Shown here one piece after another: positions 1,348 through 6,730 of a stretch of 6,730 bases of DNA. A program made the translations under genes and the position numbers. Below the pieces are notes generated by a model. It saw nothing but the letters and a program-made list of their open reading frames with translations. It was not told where the DNA came from and ran no database searches. The stretch's first letter is position 1, and the number at the start of each line of letters is the position of its first letter. Source of the stretch: a virus; the IMG/VR virus record IMGVR_UViG_3300020029_000091, positions 1-6,730 of that record. One strand, 5' to 3'.

Positions 1348-1588
1348 AGTATATATTTATCAACACAATGCCGATACCTTTATCGAGGATCAGTATTTTT
1401 TAGTAGCTACGACTTTTGTTAACGCGCGTGATGTGGTCGATCTGACTAAAAAAATGAATATATTAAACAAAGTTTTTGATTATGCTTTTGATCCTTTGTA
1501 TTATACTGATTGTTATCTCGGAGACATCTTCCGAATGAATAGTTTACCATGCAGTGACAAACCAAAACAAACTAAAATTCCATTCTGA
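1334..1588 (+). CDS. Hypothetical small protein (84 aa).
   Basis: Its ATG overlaps the end of the preceding ORF (ATGGCGAAATATAA, 1334-1347). Its TGA overlaps the VP1 start (TGATG, 1586-1590), an arrangement typical of translational coupling. Third codon positions are T-rich, as in the structural genes. Confidence 0.6.
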   Translation: MAKYKVYIYQHNADTFIEDQYFLVATTFVNARDVVDLTKKMNILNKVFDYAFDPLYYTDCYLGDIFRMNSLPCSDKPKQTKIPF

Positions 1589-3438
1589 TGAGCTTATTCA
1601 ACATGTCAGCCGTGAAAAATCATCCCAGACGTTCCGGTTTTGACCTATCTAATAGAGTATGCTTCACTAGTAAGGCTGGTGAGCTGCTTCCTGTATTCTG
1701 GGATATCGTTTACCCCGGAGATTCTTTTAAAATTAAAACCCAGCTTTTCACCCGTACTCAGCCGCTAAATACAGCCGCCTATACCCGTATTCGTGAATAT
1801 CTGGACTTCTATTTTGTGCCTCTCCGTCTGATTAATAAGAATTTACCTACTGCCTTGATGCAGATGCAGGATAATCCTGTTCAGGCTACCGGATTATCTT
1901 CAAATAAGATTGTGACTACAGATATTCCTTGGATTCCCATTAGTGGTTCCGGTTATTCAAGTTTGAATGGTATTAATGCCCTTTATCACGGTAGTTCTGG
2001 GAATTTTTTTAATTTGCTTGGATTTAACTCATTGACTCAGTCAGCAAAGTTATTAATGTACCTTCGATATGGTAATTTTCTTCCGTCTGATGCTAATATA
2101 GCGAAATCAGCTAGTGTAGGTCTTTCAGCTTCTCTTGATCTTCGTAGTTCTGAAAATTCTTCTACCGGTTATACCTCGATGCACATTCTTCCTCTCGCTG
2201 CTTATCAAAAGGTTTATGCTGACTTTTTCCGTTTTACCCAGTGGGAAAAAAATCAGCCTTACACTTACAATTTTGATTGGTATTCTGGAGGAAATATTCT
2301 CAGTTCCCTGTCCTCTGCTGATCTTGCTAAAAAATATTACTCTGACGATAACCTTTTCACCCTTCGCTACGCCAATTGGCCAAAGGATATGTTCATGGGT
2401 ATAATGCCTGATTCTCAACTTGGTGAGGTGTCTATTGTTGATGCTTCCGGATCTGAAGGAACTTTTCCTGTTGGATTACTTGATGTGGATGATGGTACAA
2501 TCCGTGCTGGACTACTTGCTCGTAGTGGTTCTAGTCCTTCTGAATACTCTGCTTTGCAGATGCAGACTTCAAGCGTTCTTTCTGCTAATACTACATATGG
2601 CGTTTATGCACAGCGTGCTGCTGGATTGGCTTCCTCCTTTACTATTCTACAACTCCGTATGGCAGAAGCTGTACAAAAATATCGTGAAGTATCTCAGTTT
2701 GCTGATCAGGATGCTCGTGGTCAGATTATGGCGCATTTTGGTGTATCTTTAAGCCCTGTTCTTTCAGATAAGTGTGTTTATCTTGGAGGATCTAGTTCTA
2801 ATATCGATCTTTCGGAGGTAGTTAATACTAATATTACCGGTGACAATGTTGCTGAAATCGCTGGTAAAGGTGTTGGTACCGGTCAAGGAAGTTTTTCTGG
2901 TCAATTCGATGAGTATGGTATTATTATTGGTATTTATCATAATGTACCTCTCTTGGATTATGTGGTTACTGGACAACCTCAGAATCTTCTTTACACAAAT
3001 ACTGCTGATCTTCCTTTCCCGGAATTCGATAGCATCGGTATGCAAACCATCCAGTTTGGTCGTTTTGTAAATAGTAAAAGTGTTTCATGGACTTCTGGTG
3101 TAGATTATCGTATCCAAACTATGGGATATCTTCCCCGTTTCTTTGATGTGAAAACCCGTTACGATGAAGTTCTCGGTGCCTTTCGCTCGACTCTTAAGAA
3201 TTGGGTCGCTCCACTGGATCCTTCCTATGTTTCTAAATGGTTGCAATCTTCTGTAACTTCTTCTGGAGCGTTGGCTCTGAATCTTAACTATGGTTTCTTT
3301 AAGGTAAATCCCCGTGTTCTGGATAGTATCTTTAATGTTAAGTGTGATGATACAATCGATACCGATCAGTTTTTAACCGCCTTGTATATGGATATTAAAG
3401 CTGTCCGCAACTTCGATTATGATGGAATGCCTTATTAA
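1588..3438 (+). CDS. VP1: Major capsid protein VP1 (phiX174 F-protein family), 616 aa.
   Basis: The N-terminus reads MSLFNMSAVKNHPRRSGFDLSNRVCFTSKAGELLPVFWDIVYPGDSFKIKTQLFTRTQPLNTAAYTRIREYLDFYFVPLRL. That is the conserved microvirus capsid signature (GELLP...PGD...TRTQP...AAYTRIREY.DFYFVP). It is the longest ORF, with a strong bias to T at third codon positions. Confidence 0.95.
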   Translation: MSLFNMSAVKNHPRRSGFDLSNRVCFTSKAGELLPVFWDIVYPGDSFKIKTQLFTRTQPLNTAAYTRIREYLDFYFVPLRLINKNLPTALMQMQDNPVQATGLSSNKIVTTDIPWIPISGSGYSSLNGINALYHGSSGNFFNLLGFNSLTQSAKLLMYLRYGNFLPSDANIAKSASVGLSASLDLRSSENSSTGYTSMHILPLAAYQKVYADFFRFTQWEKNQPYTYNFDWYSGGNILSSLSSADLAKKYYSDDNLFTLRYANWPKDMFMGIMPDSQLGEVSIVDASGSEGTFPVGLLDVDDGTIRAGLLARSGSSPSEYSALQMQTSSVLSANTTYGVYAQRAAGLASSFTILQLRMAEAVQKYREVSQFADQDARGQIMAHFGVSLSPVLSDKCVYLGGSSSNIDLSEVVNTNITGDNVAEIAGKGVGTGQGSFSGQFDEYGIIIGIYHNVPLLDYVVTGQPQNLLYTNTADLPFPEFDSIGMQTIQFGRFVNSKSVSWTSGVDYRIQTMGYLPRFFDVKTRYDEVLGAFRSTLKNWVAPLDPSYVSKWLQSSVTSSGALALNLNYGFFKVNPRVLDSIFNVKCDDTIDTDQFLTALYMDIKAVRNFDYDGMPY

Positions 3439-3449
3439 TTTTTGTTATT

Positions 3450-3902
3450 ATGGAAAAAGAAAAAGAAAAAGATAAGATAATTGAAACTCCTGCGTTAGAT
3501 TCTGCTAGAGTTTTAAAGTCTGCGATTTATTGTCAGGTTGGTCCGGTTGAAATGCTTCGCTATGTAAAAGATGATGATGGAGTAATTCATTACGTTTCAG
3601 ATGTTAATCTCCTTATGAATGCTGAACGTCTTCGCAACCAGATTGGTGAAGAGTCGTACCTGAATCTTATTCGTGGAATACAGCCTAAAAAATCTCCGTA
3701 TGATAATAAATATACAGACGAACAATTGTTTACAGCAATTAAGTCCCGGTTTATACAAACTCCTTCCGAAGTCCTTGCTTGGATTGAATCCCTTGGATCA
3801 GCAGGAGACTCTATCCGCTCTGAGCTTGATGCACTCACGGAATCAGTACAACCCAATCAGCAGTCTGAGGCGACTGGTGATTCTGGAAAAGCTGCTGAAT
3901 AA
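3450..3902 (+). CDS. Small acidic protein of 150 aa, possibly an internal scaffolding (VP3-like) protein. The function is tentative.
   Basis: It sits between VP1 and VP2. Its size, acidic C-terminus and the segment DEQLFTAIKSRFIQTPSEVLAW resemble microvirus scaffold proteins. Its stop overlaps the VP2 start (TAATG, 3900-3904). Confidence 0.7.
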   Translation: MEKEKEKDKIIETPALDSARVLKSAIYCQVGPVEMLRYVKDDDGVIHYVSDVNLLMNAERLRNQIGEESYLNLIRGIQPKKSPYDNKYTDEQLFTAIKSRFIQTPSEVLAWIESLGSAGDSIRSELDALTESVQPNQQSEATGDSGKAAE

Positions 3903-5158
3903 TGCCAATTGATCCCGGAACGGCCACCCTTGCTACCGGTGGTCTTTCTCTTGTATCTGGTTTATTCGGTTCCGGAATGTCCAATAAGTCTGTAAAGCGT
4001 TCCATTAAAGCCGCTAAAGAGATCAATCAGATTAATAACGAATTCAACGCTTCGGAAGCATTGAAAAATCGTGATTTTCAAACCTCTGAACGCGAAGCCT
4101 CGCAACAATGGAATTTGGATCAATGGAATCGAGAAAACGCATATAACGATCCGTCTGCACAACGTGCCCGTATGGAAGCTGCCGGCTTTAATCCCTATAA
4201 CATGAATATAGATGCTGGATCTGCTTCTACTTCCGGTGCACAGTCGTCTCCCGGTTCTGGTTCTCAGGCCTCTGCTTCTCAGGTGCCTAGTCTTCCGGCT
4301 TATACCGGATATACTGCTGATTTTCAGAATATAGCCTCTGGTATAGCACAGATAGGTAGTGCTATTTCTAGTGGTATTGACGCCAGGCTAACGAGTGCTT
4401 ATGGAGATGATTTAATGAAGGCTGATATTATGTCGAAGATTGGAGGTAATTCTGAATGGCTTACCGATGTGTATAAACTAGGTCGACAGAACGAAGCACC
4501 TAACTTACTTGGAATCGATTTGCGTAAAAAGCGTCTGGAAAACCTCTCTGCTGAGACGGATATTAAAGTAGCCCTTGCTCAAGGTGCTCTTCTTGGACTC
4601 CAAGCTGAAGGTCAGAGAATAGTCAATAAATTTATGCCCGCTCAACAGCAGGCTGAATTTTTCTTGAAAACAGCCAATACCTTTGCTCAATATAAGGCCG
4701 GTAAGCTTTCAGAGGCTCAGGTAAAGACCCAGATCAAACAGCAGGCTCTTCTTGAAGCTCAGGCTGTTGGTCAGAAGCTTAGTAATAAGATGGCCGATAG
4801 ATTGGCTAATTATCAGTTTAGAGCTTTGGCTGCTGAGTATCGTGCTAATGCTGCTTATTACAATGGCTTCTACAATGACGCTTGGCAGGCTGGTATGTCT
4901 AAAGCTACTCAGGCTCGGTATGAATCTAATGCCGCTCGTATTGCTGCACAAATGTCCGAAGTCTTTAAAGATCGTGAAAAATCGTCTTGGAAGAACAATC
5001 CTACGTATTACAACATAATGGAACTTCTTAAAGACATTCTTGGACCCGTAGGTAATGCTGTTGGTACATTTTATTTAGGTGGTAAATTAGGAGCAGCCAA
5101 AAAAGCCAGCAAAGCTGCTTCTGGTTGGAGTTTATCCACTCCTAATCCCTATTATTAA
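3902..5158 (+). CDS. VP2: Minor capsid / DNA pilot protein VP2 (functional analogue of phiX174 H), 418 aa.
   Basis: It has a Gly-rich hydrophobic N-terminus (ATLATGGLSLVSGLFGSG) and the motif SAQRARMEAAGFNPY that is common in VP2 proteins. It also has a Ser/Gly linker, a long Ala/Gln-rich helical region resembling a coiled coil (AQQQAEFFLK...RALAAEYRANAAYY), and tandem stops TAATAA at 5156-5161. Confidence 0.85.
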   Translation: MPIDPGTATLATGGLSLVSGLFGSGMSNKSVKRSIKAAKEINQINNEFNASEALKNRDFQTSEREASQQWNLDQWNRENAYNDPSAQRARMEAAGFNPYNMNIDAGSASTSGAQSSPGSGSQASASQVPSLPAYTGYTADFQNIASGIAQIGSAISSGIDARLTSAYGDDLMKADIMSKIGGNSEWLTDVYKLGRQNEAPNLLGIDLRKKRLENLSAETDIKVALAQGALLGLQAEGQRIVNKFMPAQQQAEFFLKTANTFAQYKAGKLSEAQVKTQIKQQALLEAQAVGQKLSNKMADRLANYQFRALAAEYRANAAYYNGFYNDAWQAGMSKATQARYESNAARIAAQMSEVFKDREKSSWKNNPTYYNIMELLKDILGPVGNAVGTFYLGGKLGAAKKASKAASGWSLSTPNPYY

Positions 5159-5276: not shown

Positions 5277-5307
5277 TTTGGAATTTCATAATAAAGTGCT
5301 ATCTTTG
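5277..5307 (+). promoter_or_regulatory. Bacteroidetes-type promoter with -33 TTTG and -7 TAnnTTTG.
   Basis: TTTG is at 5277-5280 and TATCTTTG at 5300-5307, with a 19-nt spacer. The ATG at 5331 lies 23 nt downstream. Both elements match the consensus known for Bacteroides sigma-A(Bfr) promoters. Confidence 0.6.
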
Positions 5308-5330: not shown

Positions 5331-5606
5331 ATGAAAACAAACAAATTATTTCGGGTTAATGTTGAGAAAGCTAATGCTATTTATTCAGTGTTTAAAACTT
5401 GTAATGTTTTTACATTATTGTTGGATGGCACTTTGCTTCCTGTCTATGATTTTAGTGGTAATAACGTTCGTTCGTCTTTGAATAGTCTTCGCAAGTATTA
5501 TCCTGATTCTGTAGTTAGGTATCATTTTAAGTCTTCTTTTTATGATCAGAATACTTTACCTACTCCTTTTCATTTAACTTATTCTGATTGTATTCTGTTC
5601 TTTTAG
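5331..5606 (+). CDS. Hypothetical protein (91 aa).
   Basis: It has its own promoter-like element upstream and a hairpin directly overlapping its TAG stop. Its codon usage is T3-rich, like the phage structural genes. I recognise no motif. Confidence 0.65.
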   Translation: MKTNKLFRVNVEKANAIYSVFKTCNVFTLLLDGTLLPVYDFSGNNVRSSLNSLRKYYPDSVVRYHFKSSFYDQNTLPTPFHLTYSDCILFF

Positions 5607-5623
5607 GGCTGTTTTTACAGCCC
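5606..5623 (+). terminator. Stem-loop resembling a Rho-independent terminator.
   Basis: GGGCTGT (5606-5612) pairs with ACAGCCC (5617-5623) around loop TTTT, followed by TTTAA. It starts at the last base of the TAG stop of 5331..5606. Confidence 0.6.
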
Positions 5624-5631
5624 TTTAACAC

Positions 5632-5644
5632 TGTCCGTAGGACA
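5632..5644 (+). other. Mini-hairpin TGTCC-GTA-GGACA (C-GNA-G type).
   Basis: 5-bp perfect stem with a GTA triloop closed by a C:G pair. Confidence 0.8.
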
Positions 5645-5665
5645 CCATTAACGCAGTGAGAGCGC

Positions 5666-5678
5666 CGGACGAAGTCCG
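5666..5678 (+). other. Mini-hairpin CGGAC-GAA-GTCCG (C-GAA-G type).
   Basis: 5-bp perfect stem with a GAA triloop closed by a C:G pair. Confidence 0.8.
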
Positions 5679-5691
5679 TGTCGCGGAATCG

Positions 5692-5801
5692 CGTAAACAT
5701 CCTAGCGCCCTTGAGTAATGCGCTTACTCTTGCGGCACTCTTGCTTTACATTATGTTAACTACGATCCACGCCGTCAACGAAGTTGACCCGTAAACATCC
5801 T
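5692..5801 (+). repeat. 12-nt exact direct repeat CGTAAACATCCT at 5692-5703 and 5790-5801. Each copy abuts the 3' side of a hairpin.
   Basis: The first copy overlaps the end of CGCG-GAAT-CGCG (5682-5693). The second follows GTCAAC-GAA-GTTGAC (5774-5788). The extended match is 14 of 16 (CGTAAACATCCTaGCG versus CGTAAACATCCTtACG). Confidence 0.85.
5774..5788 (+). other. Mini-hairpin GTCAAC-GAA-GTTGAC (C-GAA-G type).
   Basis: 6-bp perfect stem with a GAA triloop closed by a C:G pair. CGTAAACATCCT follows immediately. Confidence 0.8.
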
Positions 5802-5928
5802 TACGTCGTGTTCAGTCAAATTATGAAATCCACACTTTTGCCCGAATGGGAATCAGGTTTCTCCATTCCCTGATTCAACCTCTTAATCCTAAATATGCAA
5901 AAGTGACACTGAAATACCGTATTTTTAA

Positions 5929-5945
5929 TGGATTCGAAGAATCCA
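5929..5945 (+). other. Mini-hairpin TGGATTC-GAA-GAATCCA (C-GAA-G type).
   Basis: 7-bp perfect stem with a GAA triloop closed by a C:G pair. Confidence 0.8.
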
Positions 5946-6001
5946 ATGCGCGCTGGAGTGCTCGAGCTAGGCGAGCAAATAAAACAAAAGTTTTCCCGGG
6001 A

Positions 6002-6016
6002 GGACACGAAGTGTCC
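6002..6016 (+). other. Mini-hairpin GGACAC-GAA-GTGTCC (C-GAA-G type).
   Basis: 6-bp perfect stem with a GAA triloop closed by a C:G pair. It shares the GGAC/GTCC stem core with the hairpins at 5632 and 5666. Confidence 0.8.
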
Positions 6017-6052
6017 GACTCGCGAGCCGGTATCGCGAGAGCACAGCGAAGG

Positions 6053-6067
6053 AAAAAAAAAAAAAAA
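6053..6067. repeat. Homopolymer A15.
   Basis: Fifteen consecutive A residues counted at 6053-6067, at the 3' edge of the GC-rich structured segment. Confidence 0.95.
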
Positions 6068-6091
6068 TTGTGAAGAAAAATATGAAAAGAT

Positions 6092-6123
6092 TTTGATGTT
6101 TCAGAAAAATTTTTGAATATTTG
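6092..6123 (+). promoter_or_regulatory. Possible Bacteroidetes-type promoter for 6151..6345 and the Rep gene.
   Basis: TTTG is at 6092-6095 and AATATTTG at 6116-6123, which matches TAnnTTTG at 7 of 8 positions. The spacer is 20 nt, and the ATG at 6151 is 27 nt downstream. Confidence 0.35.
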
Positions 6124-6150
6124 CGTATCACAATTTTAAAATAAACAGAT

Positions 6151-6345
6151 ATGTTATTCAAAGTACTTAAGCATTCGAAGACACAGGATCCTCAACGACC
6201 GATGGAACCTGAAATTTATGTAGTAGAGGAAGCAGAACTGTTACACTTCCTGCATGAAAATGCAAAACCCGGCAGTAATTCTGTTTTGGTTTTTGACGTT
6301 TTCCCGGGAGAAAATCTCTATTTATTAAGTAACGATAAGGATTAA
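6151..6345 (+). CDS. Hypothetical small acidic protein (64 aa), 12 nt upstream of the Rep start.
   Basis: The ORF has an ATG start and a TAA stop, and it is co-oriented and tightly spaced with Rep. I recognise no motif. Its codon usage is less T3-biased than that of the structural genes. Confidence 0.5.
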   Translation: MLFKVLKHSKTQDPQRPMEPEIYVVEEAELLHFLHENAKPGSNSVLVFDVFPGENLYLLSNDKD

Positions 6346-6357
6346 ATTTTACAGGAC

Positions 6358-6730
6358 ATGAACCAACAGGAATTCATACAAAAAGTCTTTTCGATGTGTC
6401 AGCATCAGATACAGACTAAAAATCCATATACTGGTGAGTTGATCATGGTTCCTTGCGGAACATGTCCTGCTTGTCGTTTTAATAAGTCAATTCTTTCTCA
6501 AAATAAAGTTCATGCGCAATCTTTGGTTTCTCGTCATGTATATTTTATCACTCTTACTTATGCCCAGAGATACATTCCGTATTATGAATACGAAATCGAA
6601 GCTTTGGATGCTGATTTTCTTGCGATTACTGCTCATTGTCGCAATCGTAACCCTATGTATAGTACTTATACGTATCGTGGTGCCAAGCATAAGTTGAGAA
6701 TTCGTGGCCTTGCATCACCTAAGGTAGAGA
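6358..6730 (+). CDS. VP4: Replication initiator protein (HUH rolling-circle endonuclease, Microviridae VP4 / gene A-like), N-terminal part. It runs off the window end and continues at base 1. On the circular genome the gene is 6358..6609 + 1..951, giving 400 aa.
   Basis: The ATG is at 6358. The translation is MNQQEFIQKVFSMCQHQIQTKNPYTGELIMVPCGTCPACRFNKS...VYFITLTYAQRY. It has a Cys cluster CGTCPAC and rolling-circle motif I, FITLTY (6544-6561). It is in frame with 1..951: 6610 maps to base 1, and both are in frame 1. Confidence 0.93.
   Translation, partial: MNQQEFIQKVFSMCQHQIQTKNPYTGELIMVPCGTCPACRFNKSILSQNKVHAQSLVSRHVYFITLTYAQRYIPYYEYEIEALDADFLAITAHCRNRNPMYSTYTYRGAKHKLRIRGLASPKVE
6610..6730. 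repeat. Right copy of the 121-nt terminal redundancy (circular-assembly overlap).
   Basis: Identical to 1-121. Confidence 0.97.

Follow-up and report, generated by a model that had tools for sequence, protein, structure and literature searches.

INTRODUCTION

Within the Microviridae, replication origins have been defined experimentally only for the coliphage branch (phiX174 and G4). The phiX174-type viral-strand origin consists of the key sequence CAACTTG|A, an AT-rich spacer of 11 nt, and the recognition sequence ACTATAGACCAC (phiX174/G4, CAACTTG|ATATTAATAACACTATAGACCAC); it lies inside gene A and needs no hairpins. pC194-type nick sites read CTTG|ATA. The complementary-strand origins of G4, St-1, and alpha3 (DnaG-dependent oric, hairpins I-III) and ssiA of RSF1010 are instead non-coding, strand-specific hairpin clusters in single-stranded DNA (ssDNA); in the G4 type, primase starts a primer at a defined trinucleotide 3' of a hairpin on SSB-coated DNA. 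The single-strand origins (ssoA, ssoU, ssoT, and ssoW) of rolling-circle plasmids are long, imperfectly palindromic, orientation-specific cassettes placed just upstream of the nick site and rep.

Mini-hairpins sit at the G4, St-1, and alpha3 primer start sites, in RSF1010 ssiA, and in the N4 virion RNA polymerase promoter (PMC13037366). The DNA mini-hairpin d(GCGNAGC)/d(GCGNNAGC), described by Hirao and co-workers, has a C:G closing pair, a sheared G.A pair, and unusual thermal and nuclease stability as DNA but not as RNA. Among the 64 triloops only GNA forms it, in addition to GNNA-type tetraloops and the weaker GAAB; stability runs N = A > G > C > T, r(GCGAAAGC) melts at 39 C against 76.5 C for the DNA, and mini-hairpin DNA binds SSB poorly (PMC13037366).

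We found no description of either origin in Rfam or in the papers searched for the Bacteroidales-infecting microviruses, which are among the commonest ssDNA phages of the mammalian gut, and no primer, nick site, or binding protein has been described for any Alpavirinae-like virus. Here, we examined a non-coding segment in the window, i.e., the whole 6730-nt stretch of viral DNA analyzed (IMG/VR record IMGVR_UViG_3300020029_000091). A preliminary description had reported a cluster of C-GNA-G hairpins in this segment and proposed that they act at the ssDNA level, possibly in complementary-strand priming or, alternatively, as an acquired transposon-like element.

RESULTS

A hairpin cluster in a non-coding segment

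The hairpin cluster was confirmed. A script located five perfect C-GNA-G hairpins at 5632-5644, 5666-5678, 5774-5788, 5929-5945, and 6002-6016, and no other C-GNA-G hairpin with a stem of 5 bp or more exists in the window. In 5000 dinucleotide-preserving shuffles of 5620-6060, a control that had been named beforehand, 4968 had none, 32 had one, and none had two or more. A sixth hairpin of the same kind, CCC-GAAT-GGG at 5841-5850, had been missed.

The segment is richer in GC and CpG than the rest of the genome (GC, 0.464 against 0.391; CpG observed/expected, 1.51 against 0.94), with the C-G step at each loop accounting for part of the CpG excess. However, contrary to the preliminary description, the GC content is not foreign, because the pilot gene reaches 0.434. 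We found no convincing ORF: all six frames are interrupted and substitutions show no 3-nt periodicity, so coding was rejected. The segment matches no Rfam family even at E = 1, the only hit being a chance-level one elsewhere in the window (sR5, E = 0.55), and a tRNA/tmRNA scan found nothing relevant. It is the part of the genome best conserved at the nucleotide level with Dulem virus 265 (82.7% over 488 nt), while megablast aligns only 13% of the genome. A BLAST search of the segment against phage genomes returned only four microvirus records of the window's own group, Dulem viruses 265/266 and bajarodmic viruses 273/502.

The segment is modular. Modules A (5628-5815) and C (5925-6045) carry the five hairpins and occur only in some lineages, whereas module B (5827-5912) lies between them and is more widely conserved. 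The features of the region, all on the (+) strand, are as follows.

5606-5623 (+), hairpin GGGCTGT-TTTT-ACAGCCC, which starts at the last base of the stop codon of ORF 5331-5606 and is followed by TTT. It looks like a terminator and marks the 5' edge of the non-coding region, although it did not pass a simple terminator scan because the T run is short. The stem is replaced by CCTGGT/ACCAGG in the bajarodmic viruses.
5632-5644 (+), H1 of module A, TGTCC-GTA-GGACA. Stem variants are TGTCC/GGACA, TGCC/GGCA, and GTGC/GCAC; loops are GAA, GTA, GCA, and GGA, with one ACA among 68 copies.
5648-5697 (+), long-range helix of module A, TTAACGC (5648-5654) paired with GCGTAAA (5691-5697) with one A.A mismatch, enclosing AGTGAGAG, helix 5662-5664/5682-5684, and H2. 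Both helices are 100% paired in 46 sequences; GC/GC changes to CG/CG in 17 sequences and C:G changes to A:T in 14.
5666-5678 (+), H2 of module A, CGGAC-GAA-GTCCG. Variants are CGAAC-GGA-GTTCG, CGAGC-GTA-GCGAG, and CGAAC-GAA-GTGAG (tandem G.A); H2 is absent from bajarodmic viruses 273 and 502.
5693-5702 (+), GTAAACATCC, copy 1, a conserved motif directly 3' of a helix, nearly invariant across relatives; a candidate priming or protein-binding site.
5707-5736 (+), H4 of module A, GAGTAA-TGCGC-TTACTC (5713-5729) extended by GCC/GGC. Its two helices are 80-96% paired, with three pairs changed on both sides; the loop is variable.
5774-5788 (+), H3 of module A, GTCAAC-GAA-GTTGAC. A:T changes to G:C (GTCAGC/GCTGAC) in 12 of 46 sequences; the loop is GGA in 2.
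5791-5800 (+), GTAAACATCC, copy 2, directly 3' of H3.
5827-5912 (+), module B, a conserved three-way junction predicted from covariation: P1, CACTTTTG (5833-5840) paired with CAAAAGTG (5898-5905); P2, CCC-GAAT-GGG (5841-5850); P3, AATCAGG (5851-5857) paired with CCTGATT (5869-5875); a single-stranded joiner, CAACCTCTTAATCCTAAATATG (5876-5897); then ACAC (5906-5909).
5929-5945 (+), C1 of module C, TGGATTC-GAA-GAATCCA. The compensatory variant is TGAATTC/GAATTCA; C1 decays to G:T-containing forms in lineages that lack the rest of module C.
5981-5994 (+), hairpin AAAAC-AAAA-GTTTT of module C. Variants are GGAC-AAAA-GTC(T) and AGAC-GAAA-GT(T)T, some with G:T.
6002-6016 (+), C3 of module C, GGACAC-GAA-GTGTCC. 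Variants are GGACAC-GTA-GTGTCC, GGACCC-GTA-GGGTCC, and GGACGC-GTA-GCGTCC (compensatory).
6019-6039 (+), C4 of module C, CTCGCGA-GCCGGTA-TCGCGAG. Of 32 copies, 6 read CTCGTGA in the 5' arm (a G:T pair) and 2 read GTCGGTA in the loop.
6053-6067 (+), A15 homopolymer at the 3' edge of the structured region. Its length varies among close relatives from about 7 to 16 A, and a shorter A run follows module B in most other lineages.
6092-6123 (+), Bacteroidetes-type promoter-like motifs, TTTG (6092-6095), 20 nt, then AATATTTG (6116-6123), upstream of ORF 6151-6345 and of Rep, which starts at 6358. This is a motif match only, to the consensus TAnnTTTG/TTTG; equivalent TAnnTTTG boxes follow module B in other lineages.

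A sigma-70 promoter and terminator scan was uninformative for a Bacteroidetes host.

The other stems of the preliminary description fared differently in relatives. GAATCAGG/CCTGATTC is helix P3 of the conserved junction and covaries, whereas its alternative GGGAAT/ATTCCC is not the conserved fold. GAGTAA/TTACTC is largely kept and CTCGCGA-GCCGGTA-TCGCGAG is conserved. CGCG-GAAT-CGCG is present but breaks in 17 of 46 sequences, while two mutually exclusive helices, 5648-5654/5691-5697 and 5662-5664/5682-5684, stay 100% paired with compensatory changes. The palindrome GCTCGAGC is not conserved (GACCGAGC in Dulem virus 265). A long-range helix predicted by single-sequence folding (TTAACGCAGTGAGAG with CTCTTGC...TGTTAA) is not kept in relatives either, because its 3' partner varies without compensation.

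Module B covaries and carries DNA-type loops

To follow module B across relatives, we built a covariance model (R1), which scores 98.3 bits in the window. MAFFT misaligned loops of 3 and 4 nt, and the model was therefore built on the better alignment (A3), leaving out alignments A2 and A4. R1 found module B on the coding strand in 44 of 54 distant Alpavirinae-like genomes whose capsid proteins are only 35-47% identical, whereas it was absent from more distant microviruses, gokushoviruses, G4, and unrelated phages. Of the aligned cells, 98.6% were paired, against 73.7% in shuffles and 26-49% in slid controls, although the alignment used for this count (A6) was fitted to the model. Compensatory changes were found in 15 of 18 pairs (320 compensatory cells), and only 3 of 1437 cells were G:T. 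We considered whether P1 mimics a Bacteroidetes promoter (TTTG), but TTTG is not kept when P1 covaries.

The P2 closing pair is C:G in 81 of 81 copies, and 80 of 81 loops are GNA (55), GNAB (11), or GNNA (14), matching the mini-hairpin-forming classes. In the origin regions of 61 genomes, loops read cGNAg on the viral strand 86 times and cTNCg 4 times. All four N occur in H1 among relatives, and the usage order GAA > GGA > GTA roughly follows measured stability, although the stems here are 3-7 bp of varied sequence rather than GC/GC and the mini-hairpin fold is inferred from sequence. The helices of module A also covary; this was counted on a MAFFT alignment rather than on covariance models for modules A and C, with seven rows of H1 one column out of register, which lowers its paired percentage. 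A few G:T pairs do occur in modules A and C.

These patterns favor folding in ssDNA over RNA, and to this extent the proposal that the structures are selected in the viral strand rather than in a transcript is supported. The position of the segment, between a stop-codon hairpin and a Bacteroidetes-type promoter, also supports it. However, nearest-neighbor DNA folding gave nearly the same z-score on both strands (-4.27 and -4.41), so strand specificity rests on the loops alone, and such energies could not separate the strands or DNA from RNA convincingly.

A structured RNA acting as a 3' UTR of the upstream operon or a leader of the Rep operon, for example as a protein sponge, a regulator of Rep translation, or a stabilizer, would share several of these properties. 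The viral strand has mRNA polarity, so that every covarying helix would also form in a sense transcript; RNA folding is somewhat better than shuffles (z = -2.67); 10 of 81 P2 loops are GNRA; and the upstream hairpin is a weak terminator at best, so that transcription through the segment is not excluded. On the other hand, natural RNA families tolerate G:U, whereas G:U is almost absent here although many pairs switch between C:G and U:A or between G:C and A:U. Moreover, 66 of 81 P2 loops are GNA or GNAB, which are stable as DNA, no Rfam family matches, and the element ends just before a promoter rather than after one. We consider an RNA role unlikely.

Resemblance of the joiner strand to the phiX174-type origin

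The 3' half of module B resembles the phiX174-type viral-strand origin, with CTTG or CTCG in a single-stranded tract, an 11-nt spacer, and a conserved block ending GTGACAC. CTTG or CTCG occurs in 66 of 81 module B copies, 11 nt before P1 in 61 of 77, and is followed by ACAC in 65. However, this resemblance rests on short motifs and our own alignment, without a statistical test; the window itself has CTTAATCC, and the spacer is not AT-rich in all copies. In addition, the base after G is T, not A, and in the window's own sublineage the base before the proposed nick varies (CTTA-A, CTTT-A, TTTG-A), which is unusual for an HUH nick site. The motif here lies on the joiner strand of a covarying three-way junction.

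Module B lies directly upstream of a Rep with the HUH domain PF23343 and the motifs HFH and YVSAY (YxxxY). In the window, Rep spans 6358-6609 joined to 122-951, and a relative has a 532-aa form. Distant microviruses carry canonical CTTGATA at the same position upstream of a Rep of the same Pfam family, preceded by two hairpins and followed by GTGACAC, and no positionally conserved CTTGATA exists elsewhere in genomes that have module B.

Alternatively, module B itself may be the primase or RNA polymerase entry site, with the Rep nick site elsewhere, for example inside a gene as in phiX174. P2 is a CCGAAGG-type mini-hairpin like that of RSF1010 ssiA, a conserved single-stranded CTTG tract lies a few nucleotides 3' of P3, much as the CTG primer start lies 3' of hairpin I in G4, and Watson-Crick-only pairing fits a structure that must survive SSB. 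We regard this as possible but unlikely, since no alternative conserved nick motif was found, positional and motif correspondence links module B to the CTTGATA origins of other microviruses, and its wide occurrence fits an element tied to Rep better than one that depends on the host.

Distribution of the region and rival explanations

Pattern scans of viral contigs, metagenomes, and 185,579 species genomes found the sequence only in microvirus genomes or proviruses, at the same position; chance hits of the first scans in large phages and in a giant-virus contig (tandem repeats) were recognized by eye and discarded, and a 15-mer scan was too unspecific. A plasmid BLAST found nothing, and no TnpA or TnpB gene is present in the window. 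The GC of 0.46 is within the range of the phage genes. The proposed IS200/IS605-type or PATE-like element is therefore not supported and appears very unlikely. It is true that modules A and C show presence/absence and partial deletions with sharp edges among close relatives, that a variable insert of 50-210 nt lies between A and B in some genomes, and that the hairpin-rich, strand-specific architecture resembles the ends of such transposons.

We also considered an integration site, in which the folded strand would form a dif-like substrate for host XerC/XerD, as in CTXphi attP(+), letting the microvirus lysogenize Bacteroidales. Microvirus proviruses in Bacteroidetes are flanked by dif-like sites, and a CTXphi-like route has been suggested (PMC3091885). 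In a Muribaculaceae MAG, the provirus ends within about 180 nt after module B, followed by host genes, and TTATGTTAA at 5751-5759 matches the XerD arm of E. coli dif. However, the 20-nt core consensus of the 28-bp dif site has no match within 3 mismatches in the window or in the provirus locus, and TTATGTTAA is not conserved in relatives (TGTGCTAAC, TGTATTGAC, GGCGTCAC). The provirus junction lies downstream of module B and its promoter box, not inside the hairpin modules, and most carriers are free circular genomes. This explanation is therefore improbable.

DISCUSSION

Our analysis indicates that window 5607-6150 is, more likely than not, the replication-origin region of an Alpavirinae-like microvirus that infects Bacteroidales, acting in cis as DNA folded in the single-stranded viral (+) strand. 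What the data establish directly is the reality of the hairpins and their conservation, covariation, strand specificity, DNA-type loop repertoire, position, and distribution; every functional assignment, including cleavage by Rep, priming by primase or RNA polymerase, and stability of the mini-hairpins as DNA, is inferred.

In this view, module B is the core, whose 3' joiner strand displays a pyrimidine tract and a CTYG motif (CTTA-A in this genome) at a fixed 11 nt from P1 and ACAC. It would be the viral-strand origin, where the HUH Rep nicks and later religates the displaced strand, by our own alignment corresponding to the phiX174 layout of key sequence, spacer, and recognition sequence; we hold this assignment about as likely as not. 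Modules A and C, lineage-specific cassettes of C-GNA-G mini-hairpins plus two copies of GTAAACATCC, may be single-strand initiation signals, an assignment we make more tentatively still. Since these very stable hairpins bind SSB poorly, they would stay folded on SSB-coated phage DNA and mark where a host primase or RNA polymerase starts the complementary strand. G4, RSF1010 ssiA, and the single-strand origins of rolling-circle plasmids work this way, and in those plasmids the order is also single-strand origin, nick site, and rep. The earlier interpretation is thus partly supported: complementary-strand priming by the hairpins is plausible but unproven, although modules A and C are dispensable and absent from many lineages, so they cannot be the only complementary-strand signal, and module B looks more like the Rep origin.

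As in G4 and ssiA, C-GNA-G or C-GNNA-G mini-hairpins lie next to a short conserved single-stranded tract (G4, GCGAAAGC with the CTG start; ssiA, CCGAAGG) in an intergenic region of an ssDNA replicon. However, there is no sequence or model similarity to G4, in which R1 finds nothing, and the present region is larger (about 440 nt), with six or more mini-hairpins and a three-way junction, in a Bacteroidales host. Like the plasmid single-strand origins, modules A and C appear exchangeable and dispensable and lie just upstream of the putative nick site and rep. The ssoA motifs RS_B and CS-6 (TAGCGT/A) were not identified, although TAGCGC occurs at 5703-5708, in the absence of a systematic comparison with sso sequences.

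The region provides an 86-nt junction present across the clade with a predicted nick site, which in this genome would be CTCTTA|ATCC, two hairpin cassettes with predicted priming function, and a rare comparative-genomic signature for telling a DNA fold from an RNA fold, namely compensatory changes without G:T intermediates together with loops restricted to DNA-stable classes. These elements may be of use in building replicons, in resurrecting these uncultured phages, as was done for a gokushovirus (PMC7062461), and in annotating microvirus genomes. They may also explain why assemblies break here, since three related contigs end at this region and mini-hairpins disturb sequencing and pause polymerases.

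A further possibility, which we put forward tentatively and hold less likely than not, is that Alpavirinae-like microviruses use a rolling-circle origin of a previously undescribed architecture: a DNA three-way junction that forms only in the single-stranded viral strand, is capped by a C-GNA-G mini-hairpin, presents the Rep nick site on its joiner strand, and is flanked by exchangeable arrays of mini-hairpins that recruit the Bacteroidales priming machinery. To our knowledge, this would be the first natural family of DNA structures in which mini-hairpin loops and Watson-Crick-only covariation show selection on a DNA fold, and it would define both replication origins for the most abundant ssDNA phages of the human gut.

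Genome context of the noncoding region

The window is a complete circular microvirus genome. Its first and last 121 nt (1-121 and 6610-6730) are identical, representing an assembly overlap, so the unit length is 6609 nt. All genes are encoded on the + strand, as follows.

6358 across the junction to 951 (+), Rep, with HUH domain PF23343 and motifs HFH and YVSAY
1588-3438 (+), major capsid protein (Phage_F)
3450-3902 (+), a 150-aa ORF, and 3902-5158 (+), a 418-aa ORF; neither has a Pfam match, but they sit where relatives annotate the scaffolding and DNA pilot proteins
5331-5606 (+) and 6151-6345 (+), small ORFs

Rep reads as 400 aa ending at 951 and is followed by a 128-aa ORF (961-1347), whereas three close relatives, the IMG/VR contigs L204, L205, and L209, have one Rep of 532 aa. 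Rep may thus be split here by a stop or a frameshift, although a sequencing error is also possible. The region of interest lies in the only long noncoding stretch, 5607-6150. Related proviruses are located in Muribaculaceae and Prevotella assemblies and Bacteroidetes-type promoter boxes are present, which together point to a Bacteroidales host, that is, an Alpavirinae-like virus.

The hairpin cluster exceeds chance expectation

The preliminary description had reported five C-GNA-G hairpins clustered in a GC- and CpG-rich segment without a convincing ORF, and this observation was confirmed. All five hairpins were found at the stated coordinates, and no other C-GNA-G hairpin with a stem of 5 bp or more exists in the window. 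In 5000 dinucleotide shuffles of 5620-6060, 32 gave one such hairpin and none gave two. The segment has a GC content of 0.464 and a CpG observed/expected ratio of 1.51, compared with 0.391 and 0.94 for the rest of the genome. All six frames are interrupted, and variation among relatives shows no codon periodicity. A search against Rfam gave nothing even at E = 1, and a tRNA scan found no tRNA.

The segment is conserved and modular

A BLAST search against phage genomes found the segment in Dulem viruses 265/266 (82.7% over 488 nt) and bajarodmic viruses 273/502 (about 70%), whereas megablast aligned only 13% of the genome to Dulem virus 265. Pattern scans of viral contigs, metagenomes, and species genomes gave about 70 further copies, all in contigs of microvirus size or in proviruses, at the same position between the pilot-side genes and Rep. 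The alignments sorted the segment into three modules.

About 5628-5815 (+), module A, with hairpins H1, H2, and H3, helix H4, two nested long-range helices, and two copies of GTAAACATCC
5827-5912 (+), module B
About 5925-6045 (+), module C, with hairpins C1, C3, and C4

Module C is missing from the bajarodmic viruses and from the related sequence L103, and it is missing or largely deleted in the related sequences L184, L174, L030, L032, and L036. Some genomes carry an extra 50 to 210 nt between modules A and B. In L011, L013-L016, L027, and L035, and at about 4090-4230 in L003, this is a variable insert of about 140 to 210 nt with its own GC-rich hairpins, for example, GGGCGCGATGCTGCGCCC and CCCTCCCCCGTTCGGGGGAT. 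Another clade (L138-L140 and many gut contigs) has module B behind an unrelated GC-rich upstream part. In L138-L140, L226, and relatives, a different conserved module 150 to 300 nt upstream of module B contains GGCTCGTGATGAGTCGG and several G/C-rich hairpins and takes the place of module A.

The preliminary description had also offered an acquired, PATE-like mobile element as an alternative. This reading is not supported, as no dispersed copies were found in the scans, there is no transposase in the window, and a plasmid search gave no match.

The three linear contigs L204, L205, and L209 (5.6 to 5.9 kb) end right after the pilot gene and start 180 to 280 nt before Rep, so the assemblies break exactly at the structured region. 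Mini-hairpins are reported to disturb sequencing and to pause polymerases.

Module B is the most widely shared part

To trace module B in more distant viruses, we built a covariance model (R1) from 13 copies with a hand-set structure. It has three helices, of which P1 closes the junction, P2 is a 3-bp hairpin, and P3 is a 7-bp hairpin, with a joiner of about 22 nt running from P3 back to P1. We then collected 54 more distant genomes by capsid-protein alignment (35 to 47% capsid identity), and R1 found one copy on the coding strand in 44 of them. It also found one in a porcine genome at 33.5% identity, but none in five microviruses at 31% identity or below, two gokushoviruses, G4, 17 small microviruses, or 66 unrelated viral contigs.

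In the resulting 81-sequence alignment, 98.6% of cells formed standard pairs, compared with 73.7% after shuffling and 26 to 49% with partners slid. Changes on both sides were seen in 15 of 18 pairs, and 320 cells were compensatory. Although the alignment was fitted to the model, the slid controls and the number of distinct pair types leave little doubt that the fold is selected.

In a provirus in a Muribaculaceae MAG (L143, 4900-5190), four GCGAAGC-type motifs (CGCGAAGCC, AGCGAAGCG, GAGCGAAGCGAGC, and TGCGAAGCC) lie within about 150 nt upstream of module B. They match the textbook mini-hairpin sequence, although the region has no sequence similarity to module A. In a Prevotella MAG contig (L145, 300-660), module B is preceded by TTGCGAAGCC and a long inverted repeat, with no microvirus gene in the 580 nt upstream. 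The segment still matches rodent fecal microviruses and may be a provirus remnant.

We also considered a Xer/dif attachment site, because Bacteroidetes microvirus proviruses are flanked by dif-like sites (PMC3091885) and the Muribaculaceae provirus ends within about 180 nt after module B, before host HlyD-family genes. However, there is no dif-core match in the window or in the provirus locus, and the junction lies beyond module B and its promoter box.

Pairing and loop statistics favor a fold in DNA over RNA

Four observations point the same way. First, only three of 1437 cells are G:T(U), although many pairs alternate between C:G and T:A or between G:C and A:T. Natural RNA families tolerate G:U intermediates, whereas G:T destabilizes DNA helices.

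Second, P2 is closed by C:G in 81 of 81 copies, and its loops are largely confined to a few classes. A review of mini-hairpins by Hirao reports that of all 64 triloops only GNA forms the mini-hairpin, with stability N = A > G > C > T, that GNNA-type tetraloops also form it, and that GAAB loops form a weaker version. It further reports that r(GCGAAAGC) melts at 39 C against 76.5 C for the DNA, and that mini-hairpin DNA binds SSB poorly (PMC13037366). Eighty of the 81 loops fall in these classes, and only ten are GNRA.

P2 loops in the 81 copies of module B (loop, copies)
GAA, 43
GGA, 9
GTA, 3
GAAT, 9
GGAT, 1
GTAT, 1
GAAA, 6
GCAA, 2
GTAA, 1
GGAA, 1
GGTA, 3
GATA, 1
ATTTT, 1

Third, the hairpins of modules A and C behave in the same way. 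H1 uses GAA, GTA, GCA, and GGA on three different stems, and H2, H3, and C3 show compensatory stem changes with GNA loops kept. Fourth, orientation is specific. In the origin regions of 61 genomes, 86 hairpins read C-GNA-G on the coding strand and 4 read C-TNC-G, a bias not expected of a double-stranded protein-binding palindrome.

In microviruses the packaged strand has mRNA polarity, as established for phiX174. Polarity therefore cannot separate ssDNA from RNA, and the first three observations carry that argument. The energy model did not help, with z-scores of -4.27 for + strand DNA, -2.67 for + strand RNA, -4.41 for - strand DNA, and -2.30 for - strand RNA. An RNA role is disfavored by the pairing and loop statistics, but transcription is not excluded. 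Overall, the interpretation in the preliminary description was partly supported, in that the evidence favors its reading of structures acting in single-stranded DNA but not its mobile-element alternative.

The element lies between predicted transcription units

ORF 5331-5606 has a perfect TAnnTTTG box with TTTG 19 nt upstream, and it ends in a 7-bp hairpin that starts at its stop codon. The structured region then runs to an A15 tract and is followed by a second promoter-like element upstream of ORF 6151 and Rep. The two boxes, which precede the two small ORFs flanking the noncoding region, and the A tract are as follows.

5300-5307 (+), Bacteroidetes-type promoter box TATCTTTG, with TTTG 19 nt upstream
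6053-6067 (+), A15 homopolymer closing the structured region
6116-6123 (+), Bacteroidetes-type promoter box AATATTTG, with TTTG 20 nt upstream

The length of the A tract varies from about 7 to 16 among near-identical relatives. An A run also follows module B in most other lineages. In other lineages module B is followed within 10 to 40 nt by an A run and a TAnnTTTG box. On these motif matches alone, the element sits between transcription units, at the 5′ side of the Rep promoter.

Module B as a possible viral-strand origin

The joiner strand of module B is pyrimidine-rich and carries CTTG (49) or CTCG (17) in 66 of 81 copies. The motif ends 11 nt before the P1 3′ arm in 61 of 77, and ACAC follows P1 in 65. 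Two distant microviruses without module B carry CTTGATA at the same position, upstream of a Rep of the same Pfam family. Dulem virus 249 has two hairpins, the first with a C-GTAA-G loop, followed by ACCATACTATACTTGATACTATATGTAGGAGTGACACAC, and bajarodmic virus 413 has a hairpin followed by TATAACTTGATATTATATGGTGAACTGACAG.

A scan of 2.9 million viral contigs for CTTGATAYTATATG(2-12)TGACA gave 17 hits (IMG/VR contigs L280-L296), all in contigs of microvirus size (4.0 to 4.9 kb). In most of them, the CTTGATA motif sits in the loop of a stereotyped, origin-like hairpin (GGGCATATA...TATATGCCC) followed by a TTGACAC...GTGTCAA hairpin. In most, the next ORF is about 300 aa, i.e., Rep-sized, and starts about 180 to 340 nt downstream, and the two such ORFs scanned are Rep (PF23343).

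CTTG/ATA is the nick sequence of phiX174, G4 (copy at about 503 in L279), and pC194-type plasmids, and in phiX174 CTTG is followed by an 11-nt spacer and then ACTATAGACCAC. No positionally conserved CTTGATA exists elsewhere in genomes that have module B. We therefore read the 3′ half of module B as the counterpart of this origin, with the putative nick site on the joiner strand, although the window's own sublineage has CTTA-A, CTTT-A, or TTTG-A there and the correspondence rests on short motifs.

Modules A and C as candidate single-strand initiation signals

Modules A and C are dispensable, lineage-specific, and strand-specific. They consist of hairpins that should resist SSB, and they lie just upstream and downstream of the putative nick site. 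Single-strand origins of rolling-circle plasmids behave in this way. The arrangement also matches the natural contexts of mini-hairpins, namely, the primer start sites of G4, St-1, and alpha3, ssiA of RSF1010, and the N4 virion RNA polymerase promoter. The repeated GTAAACATCC, each copy of which lies directly 3′ of a helix, is a candidate start or binding site. Whereas the hairpins, their conservation, the covariation, and the orientation bias were observed directly in the sequences, the roles proposed here for modules A and C and for the repeat, including any priming or protein binding, are inferences, and nicking at module B is likewise inferred.

We found no description of this element, nor of either origin for these viruses, in Rfam or in the papers searched. 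The nearest precedent is a report of conserved intergenic hairpins in two clades of very small microviruses, which suggested them as complementary-strand signals but did not demonstrate it (PMC9865509). The kind of element, a cis-acting origin structure of an ssDNA replicon, is known, whereas the architecture, the family, and the comparative evidence for a DNA-level fold are new as far as we can tell.
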